A stretch of DNA of 64,000 nt from Candidatus Omnitrophota bacterium (GTDB taxonomy: Bacteria > Hinthialibacterota > Hinthialibacteria > Hinthialibacterales > Hinthialibacteraceae): NCBI GenBank assembly GCA_013177805.1, contig JABLXU010000008.1, positions 33,239 through 97,238 of the forward strand, in the 5' to 3' direction. The position numbers and the translations under genes were made by a program. Below the pieces are notes generated by a model. That model searched no databases. It worked only from the letters and a program-made list of their open reading frames with translations, and had not been told where the DNA came from. How positions within the stretch are numbered: the first letter of the stretch is position 1; each line of letters opens with the position of its first letter. This document shows positions 18,511-62,768 of this stretch, piece after piece.

Positions 18511-18579
18511 CTGTGAAAGAAGAGTTTTCGCTCTTTCAGAGCAATCCTCACCTTGCCCCTCGCCCAGAGGGAGAGAGGA
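18511..18579 (-). repeat. GC-rich palindromic intergenic repeat, copy B (extended form)
   Basis: Core cctcaccttgcccctcgcccagagggagagagga (18546-18579), preceded by hairpin TGAAAGA-N-TCTTTCA. The extended part aligns with copy D. Confidence 0.65.
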
Positions 18580-24625: not shown

Positions 24626-24662
24626 CCCCCTCTCCCCCCGGGAGAGGGCCGGGGTAAGGGAA
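24626..24662 (+). repeat. GC-rich palindromic intergenic repeat, copy C
   Basis: ccccctctccccccgggagagggccggggtaagggaa. Confidence 0.65.
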
Positions 24663-27310: not shown

Positions 27311-27382
27311 CAGAGAAAGAAGATGCGTTTCACTCTTTCAGGGCCACCCTCACCCTGCCCTCGCCCAGAGGGGGAGAGGGAA
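27311..27382 (-). repeat. GC-rich palindromic intergenic repeat, copy D (extended form)
   Basis: Core ccctcaccctgccctcgcccagagggggagagggaa (27347-27382), preceded by hairpin GAAAGA-N-TCTTTC. It lies between 10-bp direct repeats GGTACTTGCC at 27246-27255 and 27470-27479. Confidence 0.65.
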
Positions 27383-31971: not shown

Positions 31972-32229
31972 TGGCAATATCTCCCATTCGGACAACAGCC
32001 ATTCCGTGAAGTCTGGTAAGAGGATTGACAAACAGACCCTATCTTCAATCTTCAACCTATCTTATTAATTCAGTAATACGTAATTAATAATAATTTTTAA
32101 AAAGAAACAGCCTACGGAAGAACAGTGGATGATCCATCCGGGATCTTTATCCGCCCGGCCCTTAATCCGGTCAGAAAATTTCCGGAAGATATAAAACCGT
32201 TTGGAGTTCCCGGCGTTACATCCCATAAC

Positions 32230-32859
32230 ATGCAAAATACGGTCATGGAACCAATCACGGAAGAGAGCAAGGATCTGCCGGCCTGTTCGGATGAAGAGGT
32301 GATGCAGCGCTACGCCCGGGGCGAGGCGGAAGCCTTCGAGGAATTATTTCAGCGGCATAAACAATCGGTGTACGCGTTTATCCGGTTGTTCCTGACCGCA
32401 TCGGACCAGGTGGATGATGTGTTTCAGACCGTCTTTTTCCGCCTGATCCGGAACCGGGGACGCTATCAGCCTACGGCCAAGTTCACGACCTGGCTATTCA
32501 CTCTGACCCGGTCGGCCTGCATCGACGCCATGCGCCAAAAGAAAAGCGCGGAAATCATCCTGTTGTTTCCCGGCCGGGAGGACGGTTCCGAAGTGCCGGG
32601 GATCCACGATTTCCCCAGCCCGGACCGGTCCCCGCGGGAGGCGAGTTACCTGAGCGAGGTACGGGAGGCCATCGACGAGGTGATTCAATCGTTACCCATG
32701 GCGCAGCGGGAAGTTTTGCTACTGCGGGAAAAGACTGATTTGACTTTTGAAGAAATCGGCCGGGTGCTGGGTTGCCCAGCCAACACGGTGAAAAGCCGGA
32801 TGCATTACGCGTTGCTCGCGCTGCGGCGCGGGCTCAAGGAAAGAGGGATCGAAGGATGA
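32230..32859 (+). CDS. ECF-type RNA polymerase sigma-70 family factor
   Basis: Region 2 (EAFEELFQRHKQSVYAFIRLFL...DDVFQTVFFRLI) and region 4 HTH (LPMAQREVLLLREKTDLTFEEIGRVLGCPANTVKSRMHYAL). The start at 32230 or 32245 is preferred over the GTG at 32125. Confidence 0.85.
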   Translation: MQNTVMEPITEESKDLPACSDEEVMQRYARGEAEAFEELFQRHKQSVYAFIRLFLTASDQVDDVFQTVFFRLIRNRGRYQPTAKFTTWLFTLTRSACIDAMRQKKSAEIILLFPGREDGSEVPGIHDFPSPDRSPREASYLSEVREAIDEVIQSLPMAQREVLLLREKTDLTFEEIGRVLGCPANTVKSRMHYALLALRRGLKERGIEG

Positions 32860-34547
32860 TGCGATGCAAAACGGCGCGCGCGTTGATGATGGAACGGCTG
32901 TATGAACCGCCGGTTCCGGAGGAAGCCGCCCAGCTGGAGATCCACCTGGCAGCGTGCCCCACTTGCGCGGCGGAATGGGACGAGGTGCAACGCGCGCATG
33001 CTATCTTGAGAAAATTTCAAGATCCGGCCGTGCCCCTCTGGCTGGAGAGGAAAGTGACTGCCGCATCGAGGGCGGATTCCACTCTCGGGATAGGGATTCC
33101 GGAGCGGCGGGTCCGTGTGCGCCTGTGGATGAAACTGGCGGCGGCGGCCTCGTTCTTGTTGCTGCTGGCCGGGGTGTATCCCTATACCTGGCAGAATTCC
33201 GTTTCCCTTCGGCCTCCCATCCAGAAAGAGGCGGTTCCCGAGCGAGCGGCAGCGGGGATTGCGCTTTCTCCCGCCGTAGATCTTCCCGCCGCGCCGCCAA
33301 TCGCGATGGAACCACTCCCGGAAGCTCCCGCGCCGGCCGATCCGCCTGCGCTGGGGGTGACAACGAGGCGGAGGGCTGGTCTGGCGTCTCCCACCGATGC
33401 CGAAACGCTGGCGGCGGGACGCCCGGTCCGGGCCTTCCAGGCTCAGCCCGAAGCGAAACTGGCAGCGAAACCGGAGGAAGCGGACGGGAATCAAAAAGCC
33501 GAAGAGTTGTTCCGCACCGGATTGAAGCTCTACAACACCGCGTTCACCAAAATCGGAGAGGATCAGAAGACATTGCTGAAAAGCGCCATCGTGATGCTGG
33601 AGGATGTAGAGAAGCAACATTCCGGTGAGACTTATTGGATCGCGCTGGCGTTGATCCTTATCGCCGATTCGTACCGCGCGCTGGGCGACACAGAGACCGC
33701 GGCCCGGACGTATCAGCGGATGATCGAGCGTTTTCCGGATCAAGAAACTTATTGCCGGCAGGCGCGGGAGTCACTGGTTAAGTTATGGCTCAACCGTTCG
33801 GAGACCGTGCAACAGGCCGAAAACGAATTGGATGTGTACGCGGCCAAGTATCCGGGCAGCCTGGAGTTCGCGCGGCTGGCGATGGCGTTTTGCGAGATTA
33901 CGCGGCGGGAGCATCCGGACCGGGCCATGGCCTGGTGCCGGCGGGTGATGGAGCAGTTTCCGGACCAGCATCCCGAGCGGCAGAAAGCCTCGCGGATGCT
34001 GGCACTAGTTGAAAATCCCTTACGGGACACGTTCTACATCGAATCCTGGTGGCTGATGGGGCCGTTGCCGGCAGAGACGTTGCCTGAAGAAGGGGAGGGA
34101 TTCCGTCTTGCCTCCTGGCTCAAGCCGCTGCGGAAGCCCCTAACGAGTCCACGGTACGAATTGCGGCGGGAACGGGGAATGGAGATCGATCTGGAGAAAG
34201 AATTCAAGAACACCGTGGCCCCGGCGAGCGCCTTCGCGCGGACCTATCTCCACAGCGCCACGGACGCGGAAATCTTTCTGCAAACCGGCTTCAGTGACGG
34301 CATCCGGATCTGGTGCAACAACGCTCCCGTGTGGGGCCAAATCACGCATCAGGATTACCAGAAAGACCAATACGCGGTGATGCTGCCCCTCAAGGCGGGA
34401 TGGAACGAAATCCTGATCAAAACCTACCACTTGCGTCCGGAAGCGGCCTGGAAGTTCAGCGCGATTCCCACCGGCTTGGATGGACATCTGTTGCCGGAGT
34501 TGAAGGTTGATCCAGGCAAGGGCGGCGCGATCAGCTTGAGCGAATGA
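32856..34547 (+). CDS. anti-sigma factor (zf-HC2), single-pass membrane, with extracytoplasmic TPR-like and beta-rich C-terminal domains
   Basis: The ATG at 32856 overlaps the sigma stop (ATGA). HLAACPTCAAEWDE is the zinc-finger motif. TM segment LWMKLAAAASFLLLLAGVYPY. A Pro/Ala-rich linker is followed by helical repeats and a C-terminal FLQTGFSDGIRIWCNNAPVWG jelly-roll-like segment. Confidence 0.75.
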   Translation: MMRCKTARALMMERLYEPPVPEEAAQLEIHLAACPTCAAEWDEVQRAHAILRKFQDPAVPLWLERKVTAASRADSTLGIGIPERRVRVRLWMKLAAAASFLLLLAGVYPYTWQNSVSLRPPIQKEAVPERAAAGIALSPAVDLPAAPPIAMEPLPEAPAPADPPALGVTTRRRAGLASPTDAETLAAGRPVRAFQAQPEAKLAAKPEEADGNQKAEELFRTGLKLYNTAFTKIGEDQKTLLKSAIVMLEDVEKQHSGETYWIALALILIADSYRALGDTETAARTYQRMIERFPDQETYCRQARESLVKLWLNRSETVQQAENELDVYAAKYPGSLEFARLAMAFCEITRREHPDRAMAWCRRVMEQFPDQHPERQKASRMLALVENPLRDTFYIESWWLMGPLPAETLPEEGEGFRLASWLKPLRKPLTSPRYELRRERGMEIDLEKEFKNTVAPASAFARTYLHSATDAEIFLQTGFSDGIRIWCNNAPVWGQITHQDYQKDQYAVMLPLKAGWNEILIKTYHLRPEAAWKFSAIPTGLDGHLLPELKVDPGKGGAISLSE

Positions 34548-34706
34548 ATCATCTTCGGGGAGATGGAAAAAGTAGATATTCCTTAATCCGTATGATGAAC
34601 CTTTTAGACTGCGATGGATGAACAATCCTTGAGCGCCAAAGGCGCGGAAGAAACTAGCCCAGGGCGTTGCCCTGGGATGAGTCCAACAACAATCCCTCCT
34701 TTTCAT

Positions 34707-34743
34707 TTCCCTCTCCCTCTGGGAGAGGGGCTGGGTGAGGGAA
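34707..34743 (+). repeat. GC-rich palindromic intergenic repeat, copy E
   Basis: ttccctctccctctgggagaggggctgggtgagggaa. Confidence 0.65.
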
Positions 34744-34843
34744 GCCCTGAAAGGGCGGAAGAATCAATATTCTGTGGATCCTGCGTGATGTGATCGGTGT
34801 GAAGAGGTTTAAGGCTGTTCCTAATACGCGATTCGAGGTTGTC

Positions 34844-37800
34844 ATGATGAAATCGTTACCGGTATGGATTTTGTGGTTCGCCGTATTGGCGCCAGGGGCG
34901 GGCCATGCCGAAATCACGCTGGACAAGGACCAAATCCAGACAGAGCGGACGGCGGAGTCACTTCTCATCACGCTTCCCCTGCGGTATTCAGCGGAAATCC
35001 AAGCCATGGGAGACCTGGTGGTGACCTTGCTGGACGACGGCTACCGGCCGCTGGCGCGGATGGAGAAAAAACTGGTGCTGTTTCCCGGCGGTCAAGCGGA
35101 GCAGGTGGCGTTGCCGATCGAGTCCGGGAGTGCGGAAATCGACACGTGCCGGGTGCGGATCGACCTGATGGGCCATACCTGGCTGAAGCGGCTGGGCAGG
35201 ACCCACCAAACGCAAGACGTCCATGTGATCGGCCAGCCGCAATGGCATAGCGGGAGTCAGGCGGCTTTGCGGGTGGTGGTGACCCGTGCTCCGGGCAACG
35301 AACCGGTAGCGGGGGCGGCCATCACCGCGCGGTGTCTTCCCGTCCAAGGCGGCGAGGCGGTCACGCTGGCGGAAGCGGTTTCGGACGAGCGGGGCAACGC
35401 GGACATCCAGTTCGCGGTGCCGGAGACGCTGGAAGGCAGCCGGACGCTGGCGGTGACGATCGAATCGGCCTACGGAAAGGACGAAGTGAGCTCAGGAGTG
35501 CAGATCGTCCCTGGTACCCGTATTTTCCTCACGACGGACAAGCCGGTTTATCAACCGGGGCAGTTGATTCACATCCGGGCGCTGGCCGTCAACCAGGCAG
35601 CGGGCGTTCCCTTGGCGGAGAAGCCGGTAACGCTGGAAGTTTACGACGGCAAAGGCAACAAGGTCTTCAAGGAGACCAAAACCACCTCTGAATTCGGCAT
35701 CGTGGCGGCCGATTTTCAGCTGGCGGACGACGTCAACCAGGGCGAATACCGCTTCAAAGCCATCCTGGACAATGAAGTCACCGAGAAGACCGCGCAGGTG
35801 TATGAATACGTGCTGCCCAAGTTCCGGGTGGCGGTGCACACGGAACGAACCTTCTACGCGCCGGGCGAATCCGTGAAGGGGGGCGTGGAAGCACGGTACT
35901 TTTTCGGCAAGCCGGTGGCGGGAGCGAACGTGAAGATCACCGCCAATTGCTTCGACGTGGGATTCAACGAATTCGAAACGGTAAACATCCAGACCGATGA
36001 AGAGGGGCGCGGCGAGTTTTCGTTCACCATCCCGGATAAACTTGTGGGCCAGCCGCTGTTCAAGGGCGATACGATCGTGCAGCTCGACGTGCGGGTGCGG
36101 GACAGCGCCGATCACGAGGAACAGAAGATCCATACATTTCCCGTGGCGGTGGATCCCATCCAGGTAGACGCGATCCCCGAAAGCGGCCGGTTGGTCCCCG
36201 GGGTGGAGAATGAAATTTTCCTGGTGGCCTCGCATCCCGACGGCAGCGTGGCCCAGCCGAAGCTGCGGGTGGATTCACGGTTCCTGCCCAAATCCGTGGA
36301 ATTGCAGTGTGATGAGAACGGCATCGCGTCTGTGATGCTTATTCCCCAACCCGTGGAATCCACTCCCGGCGCTCCGTTGACGCAAAACGTGGCCCTCCCG
36401 CGGCCCGATATGCCGGTGTTGACCATCACGGCGGAAGAAGACGGCCGGCGGGCGGTACTGGTCAAGGATTTAGAGACGGAGAGCGCGGCGGAAAGCCTGC
36501 TGTTGCGGGTGGACAAGGGCGTCTATACGGTGGGGCAGGCCATGAATCTCACCGTGCTTTCGCCAGCGTTTCAAAGGGAAACGGTATTTCTGGACATCAT
36601 CAAAAACGGGCAGACCGTGCTCACTAAAACCCTTCCGTTGAAAGACGGCCGCGCCGCGCTGGCCGTCCCCTTGGACAATGCGCTCGCGGGAACGCTGGCG
36701 TTGAGTGCCTACGTCATCCGGCCGGATGGCAACCTGGTGCGGGACACGCGGCAGGTGGTGGTGCTGCGCAGCGACGACCTCCGGATCGAAATTACCTCCG
36801 ACCAGGAGCAATACGAGCCGGGGCAGCCGGCGCGGCTGCGGGTGGCGGTGCGGAGCGGAGCGGGCGAACCGGTGCGGGCGGCGATGAGCTTGCACATCGT
36901 GGATGAAAGCGTGTACAGCCTGAGCGAGAAGGAGCCGGGCCTGGCCAAGGTGTTCTTCGCCATCGAGAAGGAACTGCTGCAGCCCAAGGTGGAAATCCAC
37001 GGTTACGCGCTGGACAAGGTGGTGCGGCTGTCAGCGGTGGAATACGAGAAGAACGCCAATCTGTCCAAGGCGCTGCTCTCCAAACTGGACGCGCGCTCTG
37101 CCTACGCCCTCAACATCTTCACGGGCAGCACGAAAATCAAACAGGCCCGGCAGGAGGTGTACAACCTGCAGAATTACCTGCGGCAAACCTCCCTGCCCAT
37201 GAACACGCCGGAACAGGACGTGGACGAGCTGCTCCTCTCGCTGAACCTGCCGCCGGACGCGGTAAAGACAGTGGATCCCTGGGGCGTTCCCTACCGGGTG
37301 GATTTCCGGGACCGGCGGGTCGCCGTCGCCAGCGCGGGGCCGGACGGGAAGTTCAATACCAGCGATGACATCCAAGGCCCGGCTGAGTATTTCCAGATCA
37401 TGGCCGTGAATGGACAGGCAGACACGCGGTGGTATTTCGCGAATGGGGAACGCAGGGTGGAGAGAGAAATGGATACCATCCAACCTCCGTCGCTGCAGGG
37501 GGGAGACGAAGATCAGGATAGGGTGGAAAGTGAAACGTCTTATTACATTTACGCCGTGCCGAACGTGCCGGTGGACCGTTACGGGGGGACGGGACTCAAT
37601 TTCCGGCGATTAGGCGAATCCGGGGCACGAGGCCGCGCCGTTGTGGACAAGAGAGGAGCTTTCGTGGATGGAATCCAGCAGCCGGAGATTATCGTGGGCG
37701 CGCCCATGAAATTGGGCATGTCCTTGAGGCGAGATCTGATGGCGGAGGTCGAAGCGCGAGCCAAAATGGCTGTCCCGCCTCCCATGGCCGCGCCTCCCGG

Positions 37801-40441
37801 GGGGATGGGCGGCCTGGGTGAGGGAATGGGCCTGCGAATGGCGGGCGGTTACGGGATGATGGCCGCGCCGGAAGAGGCCCCCGCCGGAGCGATGCCAATG
37901 GATATAAAGGAAACGCAATCCCTGGCGTTTCCCGCTGTTGAAAAATTCAACCAGCCAGACCTCGCCGGAGCGGAGTTAAGGAAACTGGCAAGGCAGGAGG
38001 ACAGCGGGATTTTGATTGGAGATAACGTTAAGACTATCTCAACCGGTCAGAAGGGGGAATCATTCGGTTTCCAAAACGAACTTCTGGTTCCCGATCCCTT
38101 GTCGTTGATCGATGTCGATCGAGCCGTGGCTTTGGGAGAGGAGGAAATCCGGCCGCTGGCGGTGAATGGCGAAGTGGATGAGATCCAACTGCGGGAAGAG
38201 ATGCTGGAGCAGGATAATGAATCCAATCCGCTAAAGCACGAAATCCGGGAAGAAATCGCCAAGGTCACGGCCTTGGAGCAAAAGATGACAACTCTTCCGC
38301 CCGCGTCGCCCGAGAGCGTTCAACGGAAGATCGCGAAAGACAAGCCGGTGCGGGTGCGCCGCTATTTCCCCGAGACGCTGTTCTACACACCCGAATTGAT
38401 CACCGACGACCAAGGGCTGGCGATGCTGAATCTGCCCATGGCCGATTCGATCACTACCTGGCGGATGTCGGCGATGGCCAACGCGAAAAACGGGGCGGTG
38501 GGCGATTCCACGGCGGCGCTGAAGGTGTTCAAGCCCTTCTTCGTGGATCTGGATCTGCCGGTGGCGTTGATCCAAAACGACGAAGTGACCATCCCCGTGG
38601 CGGTGTACAACTACCTGCCGGTCGAGCAGACCGTATCGGTGGAGCTGGAGCGCGCCCCGTGGTTCGATCTGCTGGAAGGCGCGTACGAACGCCGCGTGAG
38701 CGTGGCGGCCAACGAAGTGACCTCGGTGTCGTACCGCATCCGCGCCACCCGGTTGGGGAAGAATCCACTGACAGTATACGCCTGGGGAACCGAGGACCGC
38801 GACGCCACGGGGCGGGACATCGAGGTGCGGCCCAATGGCGAGGTGCGGTACATCACCTTCAACGGGCGGCTGGACAACGGCGTGAAGCACACGGTGGCGT
38901 TTCCCGAAGGCCGGGTGCCGGGCGCGGATAAATTGTTCGTGAAGATTTATCCCGGCATCTTCAGCCAGGTCGTCGAAGGCTTGGACACGATCCTGCAAAT
39001 GCCCAACGGGTGTTTTGAGCAGACCAGCTCGACCACCTATCCCAACGTGCTGGCGCTGGATTACATGAAGCAAACCGGCAGTATCACGCCGGAAATCGAG
39101 ATGAAGGCGCGCGAGTATATCAACCTGGGCTACCAGCGGCTGCTGACGTTCGAGATCCCCGGCGGTGGTTTCCAGGTGTTCGGCAATCCCCCGGCCACGC
39201 GCGTGTTGACCGCCTACGGGCTGATGGAATTCGCCGACATGAACGAGGTGTACCCGGTGGATGAGAACCTCATCCCCCGTACGGCGAGATGGCTGTTGGA
39301 ACAGAGGCAGCCGGATGGGACCTGGGACCCGGACGAAAACTACGCACATGCCGAGATGTGGCGAAGCATCCAGGGCAATCCGCTCCTGACCACGGCCTAC
39401 GTGGCGCTGGCGCTCAGCCGGACGGACGCGCGATCCGAGCTCGGACCCACCACGCAATACCTATTGGAGCACGCCGGAGACGCGGCAGACGCCTACACGC
39501 TGGGGATTCTGTGCAACGCCCTGCAAGCCCTCGTCCCCGAAGACGGGACCACCCGCGCGTGCGTGGAGCGGCTGGTGAACCTGGGTGACATCCAGGGCAA
39601 CGAAATGCACTGGGCGGCCGAGGCAAGCATGAGCTTCGCACGGGGCAACCATGCCTCGGTGGAAGCCACGGCCTGGGCGGCCATGGCACTGATTCAGGAC
39701 GGGCGGTTCAACACCGAGGCGGGCAAGGCGCTCAACTGGCTCATTCAGCAAAAAGATCCCCAGGGCACCTGGGGCACCACGCACGGGACAGTGCTGGCCC
39801 TCAAGGCGATGGTCCTCTCCCTCAAACAGGCGACGCGGGAAGTCAACGCCATGGTCCTGGCGCGGGTGAACGGGCAGGACGCGGCGCGCGTGACGGTCAC
39901 GCCGGAGGACGCGGACCTGTTCCGGCAGATCGATTTGAGCCCCTACGTTACAGGGAATGAACAAACCATCGAAATCGACCTGGAAGGCGAGGGCAGTCTG
40001 CTCTACCAGGTGGTGGGCAAGTACTTCGCTCCGTGGAGCGAAGCGAAGGCCGCGGCCGCGCCGTTCGATATCAAAGTGGATTACGACCGGAAGGAACTGC
40101 GGCGCAACGACACGGTGACCTGCCGGATCCACGCGAAGAACCAGCGGCCGGAACGGGTGGAGATGGTGATGATCGACGTGGGCATCCCGCCCGGATTCCG
40201 AGTGGAGCGTCCCGCTCTGGACGAGTACGTGGACCAAAAAACCATCGCCCGCTACACCCTGACCGCCCGGCAACTGTTGATCTACCTGGAATCGATGGAG
40301 GGTGAGGAAATCCTCGATCTCGAGATTCCCATGAAGGCGACGCTGCCCATGACGGCCAAGGCCCCGGAAGCGGTGATTTACGAATATTACAATCCAGAGC
40401 AGAAACAGGCCGCTCCGCCGAGTGAGTTGGAAGTGAAATAA
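34844..40441 (+). CDS. bacterial alpha-2-macroglobulin family protein with thioester and greatly expanded bait-side segment
   Basis: Signal peptide MMKSLPVWILWFAVLAPGAGHA. MG-domain motifs (TDKPVYQPGQLIHIRA, IVDESVYSL), RRYFPETLFYTPE, SITTWRMSA, thioester NGCFEQTSSTTYPN and a TED/receptor-like C-terminus. 1865 aa counted from the ATG at 34844. Confidence 0.9.
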   Translation: MMKSLPVWILWFAVLAPGAGHAEITLDKDQIQTERTAESLLITLPLRYSAEIQAMGDLVVTLLDDGYRPLARMEKKLVLFPGGQAEQVALPIESGSAEIDTCRVRIDLMGHTWLKRLGRTHQTQDVHVIGQPQWHSGSQAALRVVVTRAPGNEPVAGAAITARCLPVQGGEAVTLAEAVSDERGNADIQFAVPETLEGSRTLAVTIESAYGKDEVSSGVQIVPGTRIFLTTDKPVYQPGQLIHIRALAVNQAAGVPLAEKPVTLEVYDGKGNKVFKETKTTSEFGIVAADFQLADDVNQGEYRFKAILDNEVTEKTAQVYEYVLPKFRVAVHTERTFYAPGESVKGGVEARYFFGKPVAGANVKITANCFDVGFNEFETVNIQTDEEGRGEFSFTIPDKLVGQPLFKGDTIVQLDVRVRDSADHEEQKIHTFPVAVDPIQVDAIPESGRLVPGVENEIFLVASHPDGSVAQPKLRVDSRFLPKSVELQCDENGIASVMLIPQPVESTPGAPLTQNVALPRPDMPVLTITAEEDGRRAVLVKDLETESAAESLLLRVDKGVYTVGQAMNLTVLSPAFQRETVFLDIIKNGQTVLTKTLPLKDGRAALAVPLDNALAGTLALSAYVIRPDGNLVRDTRQVVVLRSDDLRIEITSDQEQYEPGQPARLRVAVRSGAGEPVRAAMSLHIVDESVYSLSEKEPGLAKVFFAIEKELLQPKVEIHGYALDKVVRLSAVEYEKNANLSKALLSKLDARSAYALNIFTGSTKIKQARQEVYNLQNYLRQTSLPMNTPEQDVDELLLSLNLPPDAVKTVDPWGVPYRVDFRDRRVAVASAGPDGKFNTSDDIQGPAEYFQIMAVNGQADTRWYFANGERRVEREMDTIQPPSLQGGDEDQDRVESETSYYIYAVPNVPVDRYGGTGLNFRRLGESGARGRAVVDKRGAFVDGIQQPEIIVGAPMKLGMSLRRDLMAEVEARAKMAVPPPMAAPPGGMGGLGEGMGLRMAGGYGMMAAPEEAPAGAMPMDIKETQSLAFPAVEKFNQPDLAGAELRKLARQEDSGILIGDNVKTISTGQKGESFGFQNELLVPDPLSLIDVDRAVALGEEEIRPLAVNGEVDEIQLREEMLEQDNESNPLKHEIREEIAKVTALEQKMTTLPPASPESVQRKIAKDKPVRVRRYFPETLFYTPELITDDQGLAMLNLPMADSITTWRMSAMANAKNGAVGDSTAALKVFKPFFVDLDLPVALIQNDEVTIPVAVYNYLPVEQTVSVELERAPWFDLLEGAYERRVSVAANEVTSVSYRIRATRLGKNPLTVYAWGTEDRDATGRDIEVRPNGEVRYITFNGRLDNGVKHTVAFPEGRVPGADKLFVKIYPGIFSQVVEGLDTILQMPNGCFEQTSSTTYPNVLALDYMKQTGSITPEIEMKAREYINLGYQRLLTFEIPGGGFQVFGNPPATRVLTAYGLMEFADMNEVYPVDENLIPRTARWLLEQRQPDGTWDPDENYAHAEMWRSIQGNPLLTTAYVALALSRTDARSELGPTTQYLLEHAGDAADAYTLGILCNALQALVPEDGTTRACVERLVNLGDIQGNEMHWAAEASMSFARGNHASVEATAWAAMALIQDGRFNTEAGKALNWLIQQKDPQGTWGTTHGTVLALKAMVLSLKQATREVNAMVLARVNGQDAARVTVTPEDADLFRQIDLSPYVTGNEQTIEIDLEGEGSLLYQVVGKYFAPWSEAKAAAAPFDIKVDYDRKELRRNDTVTCRIHAKNQRPERVEMVMIDVGIPPGFRVERPALDEYVDQKTIARYTLTARQLLIYLESMEGEEILDLEIPMKATLPMTAKAPEAVIYEYYNPEQKQAAPPSELEVK
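39011..39022 (+). other. CxEQ thioester motif codons (CFEQ) of the alpha-2-macroglobulin
   Basis: tgt ttt gag cag, in frame with the 34844 ORF. Confidence 0.8.
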
Positions 40442-40688: not shown

Positions 40689-41024
40689 TTACCGGGGGGC
40701 GGTGTTGTATTGGGGCTGTTGCTGGGTCGTGGACGTATACCCGCGCACCGAGCCCTGGGCCGCGCCCTGATTGTAGCCTTCCTGATATCCTTGCTGCCGG
40801 GCGTTGGCTTTCTCGCGCTGGTATTGGTCGTTAATCAACGCGCCGCCCAGCGCGCCCACACCCGCACCGATCAAGGTCCCTTCGGTGTCACCGCCGATGA
40901 GTTGCCCCGCGATCGCACCGGCGGCGCCGCCCCACATGGCCCCTTCCTGGGCCGGGGAGGTATAGCAGCCGGCCGCGAAGACCGCCACTCCGGTCATGAT
41001 GGCTAGTAATTGGAATCGCTTCAT
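40689..41024 (-). CDS. small glycine-zipper lipoprotein
   Basis: Lipobox-like signal MKRFQLLAIMTGVAVFAAGC, then GGAAGAIAGQLIGGDTEGTLIGAGVGALGGALI (glycine zipper) and a Q/Y-rich tail. Confidence 0.7.
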   Translation of the reverse strand: MKRFQLLAIMTGVAVFAAGCYTSPAQEGAMWGGAAGAIAGQLIGGDTEGTLIGAGVGALGGALINDQYQREKANARQQGYQEGYNQGAAQGSVRGYTSTTQQQPQYNTAPR

Positions 41025-62732: not shown

Positions 62733-62768
62733 TTCCTCTCCCTCCGGGAGAGAGCCGGGGTGAGGGAA
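62733..62768 (+). repeat. GC-rich palindromic intergenic repeat, copy I
   Basis: ttcctctccctccgggagagagccggggtgagggaa. Confidence 0.65.

Follow-up and report, generated by a model that had tools for sequence, protein, structure and literature searches.

The window analysed here, a stretch of 64,000 nucleotides from a Candidatus Omnitrophota genome (contig JABLXU010000008.1), carries on its plus strand a gene for a thioester alpha-2-macroglobulin (A2M; 34844-40441; 1865 amino acids and a stop codon), recognised from its open reading frame (ORF), its motifs, its Pfam matches and an alignment to human A2M. We focused on the bait region of this protein, which holds 475 residues between MG6a (...HIVDESVYSL) and MG6b (VRVRRYFPETLF) compared to ~121 in human A2M, i.e. 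~4 times the human length, and which harbors a domain resembling GspG, the major pseudopilin of type II secretion systems (T2SS), followed by a long hypervariable stretch mostly predicted to be disordered.

An A2M gene with an enlarged bait region

The gene lies in a single long ORF (34790-40441, plus strand), translated here from the ATG at 34844 (MMKSL), and its product is identical to the database entry NPU96547.1 (P0124), labelled "hypothetical protein" in GenBank. GC content is even along the gene, and the bait insert is GC-typical. Pfam recognises MG2 (residues 226-308, E = 1.2e-26), MG3, MG4, A2M_BRD, A2M (E = 1.4e-23), TED_complement and A2M_recep. The A2M_BRD match (residues 554-693; 36503-36922) covers the MG5/MG6a beta-sandwich, whose strands are modelled by AlphaFold2 (AF2) with confidence scores (pLDDT) of 87-97, and ends in HIVDESVYSL. 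Re-entry into MG6b/MG7 (VRVRRYFPETLF...; 38348-38647) is marked by the Pfam A2M match (residues 1178-1268), the human alignment and the AF2 model. The thioester domain (38960-39811; TED_complement, residues 1373-1656, E = 6.8e-47) contains CFEQ at 39011-39022, in line with the intact thioester reported in a preliminary description of this DNA, and is followed by a C-terminal receptor-binding/MG8-type domain (40157-40408; A2M_recep, residues 1772-1855, E = 5.6e-12). At the other end, the N-terminus (34844-34909) reads as signal peptide-like and is kept in the 84%-identical orthologue P0003 (gene in locus L001); a lipobox Cys was looked for in this segment (MMKSLPVWILWFAVLAPGAGHA-E) and none was found. 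The protein is probably secreted or periplasmic, and probably monomeric.

Among solved structures, the closest to the window protein are those of human A2M, CD109 and A2ML1 (E = 3e-64 to 4e-59), human A2M itself matching at 3e-64 whereas Salmonella A2M matches at 2e-15 only. The bacterial bMG5 and bMG10 models of Pfam reach 15 bits on the protein, under their cut-offs of ~26. Since its best structural matches are human, Salmonella A2M is distant and the bMG models stay below cut-off, the protein is, as judged from its sequence, a eukaryote-like thioester A2M that belongs neither to the ECAM/YfhM nor to the YfaS/MagD type. The former type was rejected for the lack of a lipobox, the sub-threshold bMG scores, the far closer relation to human A2M and the absence of a pbpC neighbor, no transglycosylase or transpeptidase match (PBP1c) being found in the ten ORFs examined between ~27.5 and 47.0 kb of the window; the latter, thioester-less type 2 with its mag-type operon, was rejected because the thioester motif is present and the gene context is different.

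The coordinates given in the preliminary description were all recovered from the sequence: HIVDESVYSL starts at nucleotide 36893 and RYFPETLFY at 38360, with 489 codons between the two starts; DPWGVPYRVDF...SDDI lies at 37274-37372, the MAVPPP...AMPMD tract at 37766-37903 and an acidic stretch at 38138-38263. It had further placed the extra sequence in the bait region, and alignment to human A2M (PDB 6tav), in which query residue 693 corresponds to human 607 and query 1169 to human 729, locates it exactly at the MG6 bait insertion. The slot is bounded, within MG6, by VDxSV... and ...R-x-YFPET motifs. By comparison, a 2026 review lists bait-region domains (BRDs) of 66-126 residues and describes bacterial BRDs as smaller than eukaryotic ones (PMC12939704).

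No Pfam match is found in residues 694-1177, between A2M_BRD and A2M. With the insert alone, Pfam and NCBIfam return nothing but a sub-threshold T2SSG match (E = 0.028), no ANATO domain is matched in Pfam at E up to 10, and a word-indexed homologue search gives one partial relative only. For residues 540-1290, AF2 modelling on an alignment of 85 sequences yields confident MG beta-sandwiches up to residue 687 and from residue 1180 on; in between lie helices (688-759, pLDDT 41-61), a confident small alpha/beta domain (760-849, pLDDT 82-96), a weak hairpin (850-866), a region with pLDDT below 50 over most of 867-1104 (blocks of 30-55) and a long helix (1113-1149, pLDDT 74-83). Foldseek searches with this model recover only A2M, C3 and C5, through their MG parts. 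Parsing the protein with Pfam models, as had been proposed, thus gives a span that is not filled by canonical MG domains, and additional MG domains were rejected, the model showing only helices, one small alpha/beta domain and coil.

A chimeric join, which the preliminary description had named as a possible refutation, was likewise rejected, as was a frameshift within the gene: the same layout is present in independent assemblies and in more than 20 diverged relatives, with in-frame indels only. The architecture recurs in P0002 (97% identical), in P0003 and in ~20 further proteins of 1750-1991 amino acids, named Omnitrophota, Hinthialibacter or "bacterium", in which the span from VDES to RxxFPET ranges from 350 to 602 residues; when clustered at 90% identity, P0002 groups with full-length copies that come from at least 7 other assemblies. 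All length differences among relatives and alleles are in-frame.

A GspG-like domain inside the bait region

The bait region opens with a conserved helical part (residues 694-760; 36923-37123), recognised from its predicted helices and from a clade identity of 77-100%; modelled in isolation, these helices have low to moderate pLDDT. It is followed by the GspG-like globular domain (residues 761-849; 37124-37390), which lacks the pilin N-terminus. The preliminary description had read DPWG...GPDG...DDI as a GspG-type signature, and profile, structure and motif comparisons bear this out. A profile made from the alignment of the first 205 residues after MG6a of 48 homologues matches, in the PDB, 29jd, GspG of enterohaemorrhagic Escherichia coli (EHEC; 3g20), PulG (1t92 and 5wda) and XcpT (2kep) with E = 7.6e-8 to 1.6e-5, over profile positions ~81-166, i.e. 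essentially the whole soluble pseudopilin domain. Individually, 32 of the 48 homologues match PF08334 (T2SSG) at E < 0.01, the best at 4.5e-9. In a separate AF2 model of the segment after MG6a (mean pLDDT 75.8), the GspG-like domain reaches pLDDT 84-98, and the best Foldseek match of this model is again EHEC GspG (3G20; probability 0.99, 23% identity), with the type IV pilin PilA1 far behind.

The Ca2+ ligands of OutG/PulG are D117, T/S122, D125 (possibly D124) and two backbone carbonyls (PMC13081927). The segment A-G-P-D834-G-K-F-N-T839-S-D841-D842-I of the window protein, in which AGPDGKFNTSDDI aligns with GPDG...DDI, keeps all the ligand side chains, and D834, D841 and D842 are each conserved in at least 90% of the 48 family sequences. 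The ligand positions are conserved as D834, T839, D841 and D842, and the domain may accordingly bind Ca2+.

Anywhere in the A2M protein, no prepilin motif (G-F-T-L-x-E type) was found, and the insert contains no hydrophobic helix, its highest 19-residue hydropathy being 1.07. Lacking both the prepilin site and the hydrophobic N-terminal helix, the GspG-like domain cannot polymerise. A functional pseudopilin was rejected on these grounds, the prepilin cleavage/methylation motif and the alpha1-N helix being absent and the domain embedded in another protein; no T2SS Pfam family was found among the ten ORFs tested. Several relatives carry a precomputed PF08334 match, one of them being named "type II secretion system protein GspG" by NCBI, so that automated annotation had already seen the domain. 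The literature searched yielded no paper in which macroglobulins are related to pseudopilins or to ECF anti-sigma factors.

A hypervariable stretch and a conserved helix

Beyond the GspG-like domain, residues 850-1098 (37391-38137) form a clade-specific hypervariable stretch, defined by the AF2 model, dN/dS (the ratio of nonsynonymous to synonymous substitution rates) and non-alignability, which is mostly predicted to be disordered and is rich in Gly, Arg and acidic residues; we propose it as the enlarged bait. Comparison by region with the 84%-identical orthologue P0003 separates the bait region into parts that evolve very differently. The MG flanks are 88-93% identical at the amino acid level (dN/dS 0.16 and 0.12), the conserved helices (684-760) 97% (0.04) and the GspG-like domain 91% (0.11), the latter being under strong purifying selection. 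Identity falls to ~50% in residues 846-974 and to ~53% in residues 1021-1095, with dN/dS of 0.78 and 0.84, respectively, and below ~65% overall identity the variable part of clade members is unalignable. An exhaustive phmmer comparison of residues 846-1168 with 1.84 billion representative proteins returned no match at E ≤ 0.001; no hidden known domain is therefore detected by sequence in this segment, and the absence of homologues is as expected of a fast-evolving disordered segment. The preliminary description had suggested that the enlarged bait might carry a decoy, an idea that finds no support because the GspG-like domain is conserved and common to the whole family. The GspG-like domain is most likely a rigid structural part of the BRD, docking on the MG/TED body.

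Within the variable stretch, residues 975-1020 (37766-37903) form a low-complexity tract recognised from its composition, in which Met, Gly, Pro and Ala make up 80% of the 46 residues, versus ~25% in the rest of the protein, with Met alone at 19.6%. Among alleles more than 97% identical (P0002 and P0129-P0134), the tract has 26 variable columns per 100 residues versus 2.5 elsewhere, including in-frame gains and losses of GL/GM units, and most of it is absent from the 84%-identical orthologue. Tandem Repeats Finder detected no DNA tandem repeat beneath it.

The bait region closes with a clade-conserved element, (G)PLxVNGxxDxxQL, followed by a long acidic helix (residues 1099-1149; 38138-38290), which precedes the return to MG6b. 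It was delimited by conservation, the AF2 model and dN/dS; its P and L do not vary across 20 clade sequences, and its identity to the orthologue is 62% with a dN/dS of 0.15. A profile of this element and its helix found nothing significant in the PDB.

Distribution of the family and of bait lengths

We scanned one genome per GTDB species using the two most conserved BRD peptides as queries, and obtained at least 599 candidate stretches, of which at least 539, from as many species-level genomes, were confirmed as relatives. Taxa, loci and gene context were taken from the best 80 of these. They belong to Hinthialibacterota/"Omnitrophota", Armatimonadota (including Chthonomonas calidirosea), Acidobacteriota, WOR-3, Hydrogenedentota, Poribacteria, KSB3, Stahlbacteria, Cloacimonetes, Myxococcota, Planctomycetota and others, and GCFEQ is present at every locus whose gene extends that far. 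The four Poribacteria-type proteins P0029, P0031, P0035 and P0036 (~1830 amino acids, span ~245) carry an extra N-terminal DUF4159 region (PF13709) before the A2M body.

A survey of bait lengths across bacterial A2M homologues had been suggested as a check, and it shows the window clade to be clearly longer than the broad family. Among 117 database homologues, the 92 of the broad family have VDES to RxxFPET spans of 198-290 residues, with a typical value of ~245, compared to 350-602 in the window clade and ~320-355 in a sister group (P0024-28). Among the matches listed for species genomes, spans above 390 occur in L006-L012 alone, all others measured being 212-290. Note that the RxxFPET motif missed some Acidobacteriota loci as well as P0024-28 (RSYFPEL/M), for which the span was taken from the thioester offset instead. 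The difference lies in the linker from the GspG-like DDI to MG6b, which is 41-114 residues long in the broad family (median 74) and 177-445 in the clade (median 280).

In the broad family this linker is enriched, relative to the rest of the protein, in Met (6.8% vs 1.9%), Gly (13.6% vs 7.2%) and Ala (17.4% vs 9.7%), which makes the Met/Gly/Pro/Ala tract an ancestral compositional trait, not peculiar to the window protein. The pseudopilin motif and the Met-rich tract, put forward in the preliminary description as the extra features of this protein, are thus both real, but both are family-wide and are not what sets it apart. What is lineage-specific is a further ~200-350 residues, mostly predicted disordered and near-neutral, the rest being the PLxVNG motif and its helix. 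From the sequences compared, the linker expansion (span 320-602) appears only in the Hinthialibacterota-type lineage, and the GspG-like domain together with the Met/Gly/Ala-rich linker mark a large, undescribed family of bacterial A2Ms.

Gene context

The neighbors of the A2M gene encode an ECF sigma factor, an anti-sigma factor, a glycine-zipper protein and FolD. The ECF-type sigma factor (Pfam Sigma70_r2, Sigma70_r4 and Sigma70_r4_2) lies at 32125-32859 on the plus strand, these being the ORF limits and the true start being probably internal. The anti-sigma gene (32856-34547, plus strand), whose ATG overlaps the sigma stop codon by 4 nucleotides, encodes, from Pfam and hydropathy, a zf-HC2 domain, a single transmembrane (TM) segment (~residues 118-136 of the ORF translation), a periplasmic Pro/Ala linker, TPR repeats and a beta-rich C-terminus. 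This C-terminal third (33900-34547; ...IFLQTGFSDGIRIWCNNAPVWG...) has no Pfam match and may be a ligand- or protein-binding module. The same-strand order sigma, anti-sigma, A2M is found in 10 of the 10 expanded-bait loci with context (L001/L006, L004/L008, L005, L007, L009, L010, L012, L013 and, from the sister group, L087) and in 0 of ~70 broad-family loci. Judging by this gene order, expression of the A2M, or signaling downstream of it, is probably tied to the upstream ECF sigma/anti-sigma pair.

One relative goes further. P0075 is a single ORF (L086, 6001-11379), directly after an ECF sigma gene (L086, 5256-5864), in which a zf-HC2 anti-sigma domain (residues 3-37) and a TM segment are followed by an entire thioester A2M; the latter gives a T2SSG match (E = 1.3e-7) and has an enlarged bait of 359-382 residues that includes a clear (GGM)n run. 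P0075 sits on another branch of the family: by core similarity, the window protein ranks 97th of 121. Neither a search with the P0075 N-terminus nor a scan of 120 homologues for HxxxCxxC found another anti-sigma::A2M fusion.

On the other side, a small glycine-zipper protein (Pfam Gly-zipper_Omp; YMGG; 40689-41024, minus strand) is encoded convergently with the A2M gene. A homologue occupies the same place in L005, and tblastn gives matches ~2 kb farther downstream in L001/L006 and, in L012, close to the end of the gene.

The spacer between the anti-sigma and A2M genes (34548-34843, 296 nucleotides) is 97% identical to its L001 counterpart, the neighboring genes having dS of 0.3-0.6, and folds more stably than shuffled versions (z = -3.2). 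It contains, on the minus strand, an Acido-Lenti-1 RNA motif (RF01687; 34632-34676; 44.1 bits for a gathering threshold of 37, E = 9e-9), the sole gathering-level Rfam match of the window, which is also present in L001 (47.2 bits). The 3-nucleotide loop of the first Acido-Lenti-1 hairpin is reverse-complemented between the window and L001 (GTT vs AAC). A scan of the spacer for sigma-70 promoters found none, and its terminator-like hairpins are on the minus strand only. A GC-rich palindrome resembling repetitive extragenic palindromic (REP) elements (CCCTCTCCC-N3-GGGAGAGGG and variants) has one copy in the spacer (34709-34729) and others at the intergenic sites 18557-18577, 24628-24648, 27358-27378 and 62734-62754; the window contains 7 matches, both strands of palindromic sites being counted, for 0 expected.

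Discussion

The anatomy of the bait region is firmly established, and from it we infer the functions of its parts. We favor, with moderate confidence, a thioester protease trap in which a conserved structural half of the BRD is combined with an exposed, disordered, fast-evolving and lengthened half that serves as the bait. That the disordered half is the actual bait is suggested by its position, its predicted disorder, its eukaryote-like hypervariability and the intact thioester. The BRD inserted in MG6 is composed, unusually, of four parts: the helices, the GspG-like domain, ~250 residues mostly predicted to be disordered that would be the exposed bait, and the PLxVNG motif with its acidic helix, which leads back to MG6b. 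A cut anywhere in the disordered stretch would disconnect MG6a from MG6b, and their separation would release the strained native conformation and expose the CFEQ thioester, which would then covalently capture the attacking protease. Parts one and two, with a short (~74 residues), Met/Gly/Ala-rich part three, are ancestral to the large bacterial family; the Hinthialibacterota-type lineage lengthened part three and added part four, which would offer foreign proteases a much larger and more promiscuous target. Multi-specificity of the enlarged bait, raised as a possibility in the preliminary description, is plausible.

Several observations weigh against this scheme. The window protein's own GspG-like segment scores 14.9 bits in Pfam for a gathering threshold of 21, and the E-value of its Foldseek match to 3G20 is 0.012. 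The stretch 850-1098 is not uniformly low-complexity and includes patches rich in aromatic residues, which might fold or serve to bind a partner. In the AF2 models, helices 694-760 are of low confidence, which makes any docking of the BRD tentative. Lastly, a dN/dS of ~0.8 fits relaxed constraint as well as the diversifying selection that a selected multi-specificity would entail.

This last point leads to an alternative that we consider unlikely, albeit one to be taken seriously, in which the expansion is a neutral by-product of slippage and drift, brings no gain in specificity, and leaves the protein working like its relatives with a ~245-residue span. The dN/dS of the variable parts, the GM/GL unit length polymorphism among alleles, the scatter of clade linker lengths from 177 to 445 residues and the lack of detectable homologues of the variable region all speak for it. 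However, every member of this deep lineage, with core identity down to ~50%, has kept at least 177 linker residues despite the deletion bias of bacterial genomes, the PLxVNG motif and helix, themselves constrained, were gained along with the expansion, and the expansion co-occurs with a conserved change in gene context; these three points argue against pure drift. The same context raises another explanation, to our mind rather improbable, in which the A2M is an extracytoplasmic danger sensor of the adjacent ECF sigma/anti-sigma switch: upon bait cleavage, a conformational change or a fragment would be read by the periplasmic TPR/beta domain of the anti-sigma factor, switching on the sigma factor and a defense regulon, with the long disordered segment, or the PLxVNG helix, acting as the interaction or signal element. 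In P0075, bait cleavage would be read directly through the fusion to the anti-sigma domain. The invariant gene order at expanded-bait loci and its absence from the broad family are consistent with such a sensor, and so is the P0075 fusion, which arose in another branch, next to an ECF sigma gene and with an enlarged (GGM)n bait. On the other hand, adjacency may reflect no more than transcription of the A2M gene by way of the sigma factor, a 296-nucleotide spacer with hairpins parts the anti-sigma gene from the A2M gene, the fusion was seen just once, on a metagenomic contig, and the correlation relies on two independent lineages only, the clade context and P0075.

By analogy with the Met-rich loops of copper-handling proteins, the Met/Gly tract could instead be a Cu(I)-binding or redox-sensing segment rather than part of the bait. 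Its Met content over 46 residues and the family-wide Met enrichment of the linker are compatible with this role, which we nevertheless judge highly improbable: no conserved MxxM or His spacing is present, the length of the tract is not constant between alleles and most of it is missing from the 84%-identical orthologue, it sits exactly at the bait position, and no copper genes were seen by Pfam in the ten neighboring ORFs. As for the long span being an artefact of assembly or annotation, or a set of extra MG domains, the chance is negligible given the identical GenBank protein, the at least 7 other assemblies and the diverged relatives of the same layout, and given that neither an MG match nor an MG-type sandwich in the AF2 model is found. 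The protease trap with a lengthened bait is the reading that we retain in what follows.

Known bacterial A2Ms fall into two proteobacterial types with short baits. The window exposes a third type, eukaryote-like and widespread (at least 539 species-level genomes), whose BRD has captured a pseudopilin fold. The claim that bacterial BRDs are smaller (PMC12939704) is contradicted by this family of A2Ms with a GspG-like domain in the bait. The family offers a natural series of bait lengths for relating bait size and disorder to the breadth of inhibition, a new case of a domain captured at the MG6 position where complement carries its anaphylatoxins, and a testable link between protease trapping and envelope-stress signaling; if the A2M did act as a danger sensor, bacteria would have a counterpart to the "cleavage equals alarm" signaling of complement.

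Comparison with known systems

The window protein shares with human A2M, A2ML1 and CD109 the Pfam order MG2-MG3-A2M_BRD-A2M-TED-A2M_recep, the TED thioester and a BRD inserted at the same point of MG6. It differs from them in the length of its bait (475 vs ~121 residues), in its GspG-like domain and in its ~250 predicted-disordered residues, as well as in being bacterial, with a plain signal peptide and a CFEQ motif where eukaryotic A2Ms have CGEQ. The bait regions of eukaryotic A2Ms are hypervariable, and that of the window protein is likewise fast-evolving. E. coli ECAM/YfhM and Salmonella A2M (PDB 4u48 and 5a42) are also bacterial thioester A2Ms, thought to guard the envelope against foreign proteases and described as monomeric "snap-trap" inhibitors, but they are far more distant (E = 2e-15), the bait of ECAM is short, and the window protein has neither a lipobox nor pbpC beside it.

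In complement C3, C4 and C5, a small, independently folded domain also sits in the MG6 insertion beside the activating cleavage site; the insert of the window protein is, however, a GspG-like alpha/beta domain and not a helical ANATO, and shows no sign of being released as a fragment. With GspG, PulG and XcpT (PF08334) this domain shares the DPWG-x-Y...S-x-GPDG...T-x-DDI signature and the Ca-ligand positions, but it is embedded in another protein, has no prepilin motif or alpha1-N helix, and no T2SS genes adjoin it. The C-terminal tails of GroEL are flexible (GGM)n repeats, and the Gly/Met repeats of the A2M linker, most explicitly the run of P0075, resemble them in composition only, the GroEL tails belonging to a chaperonin cavity and the A2M repeats to a bait.

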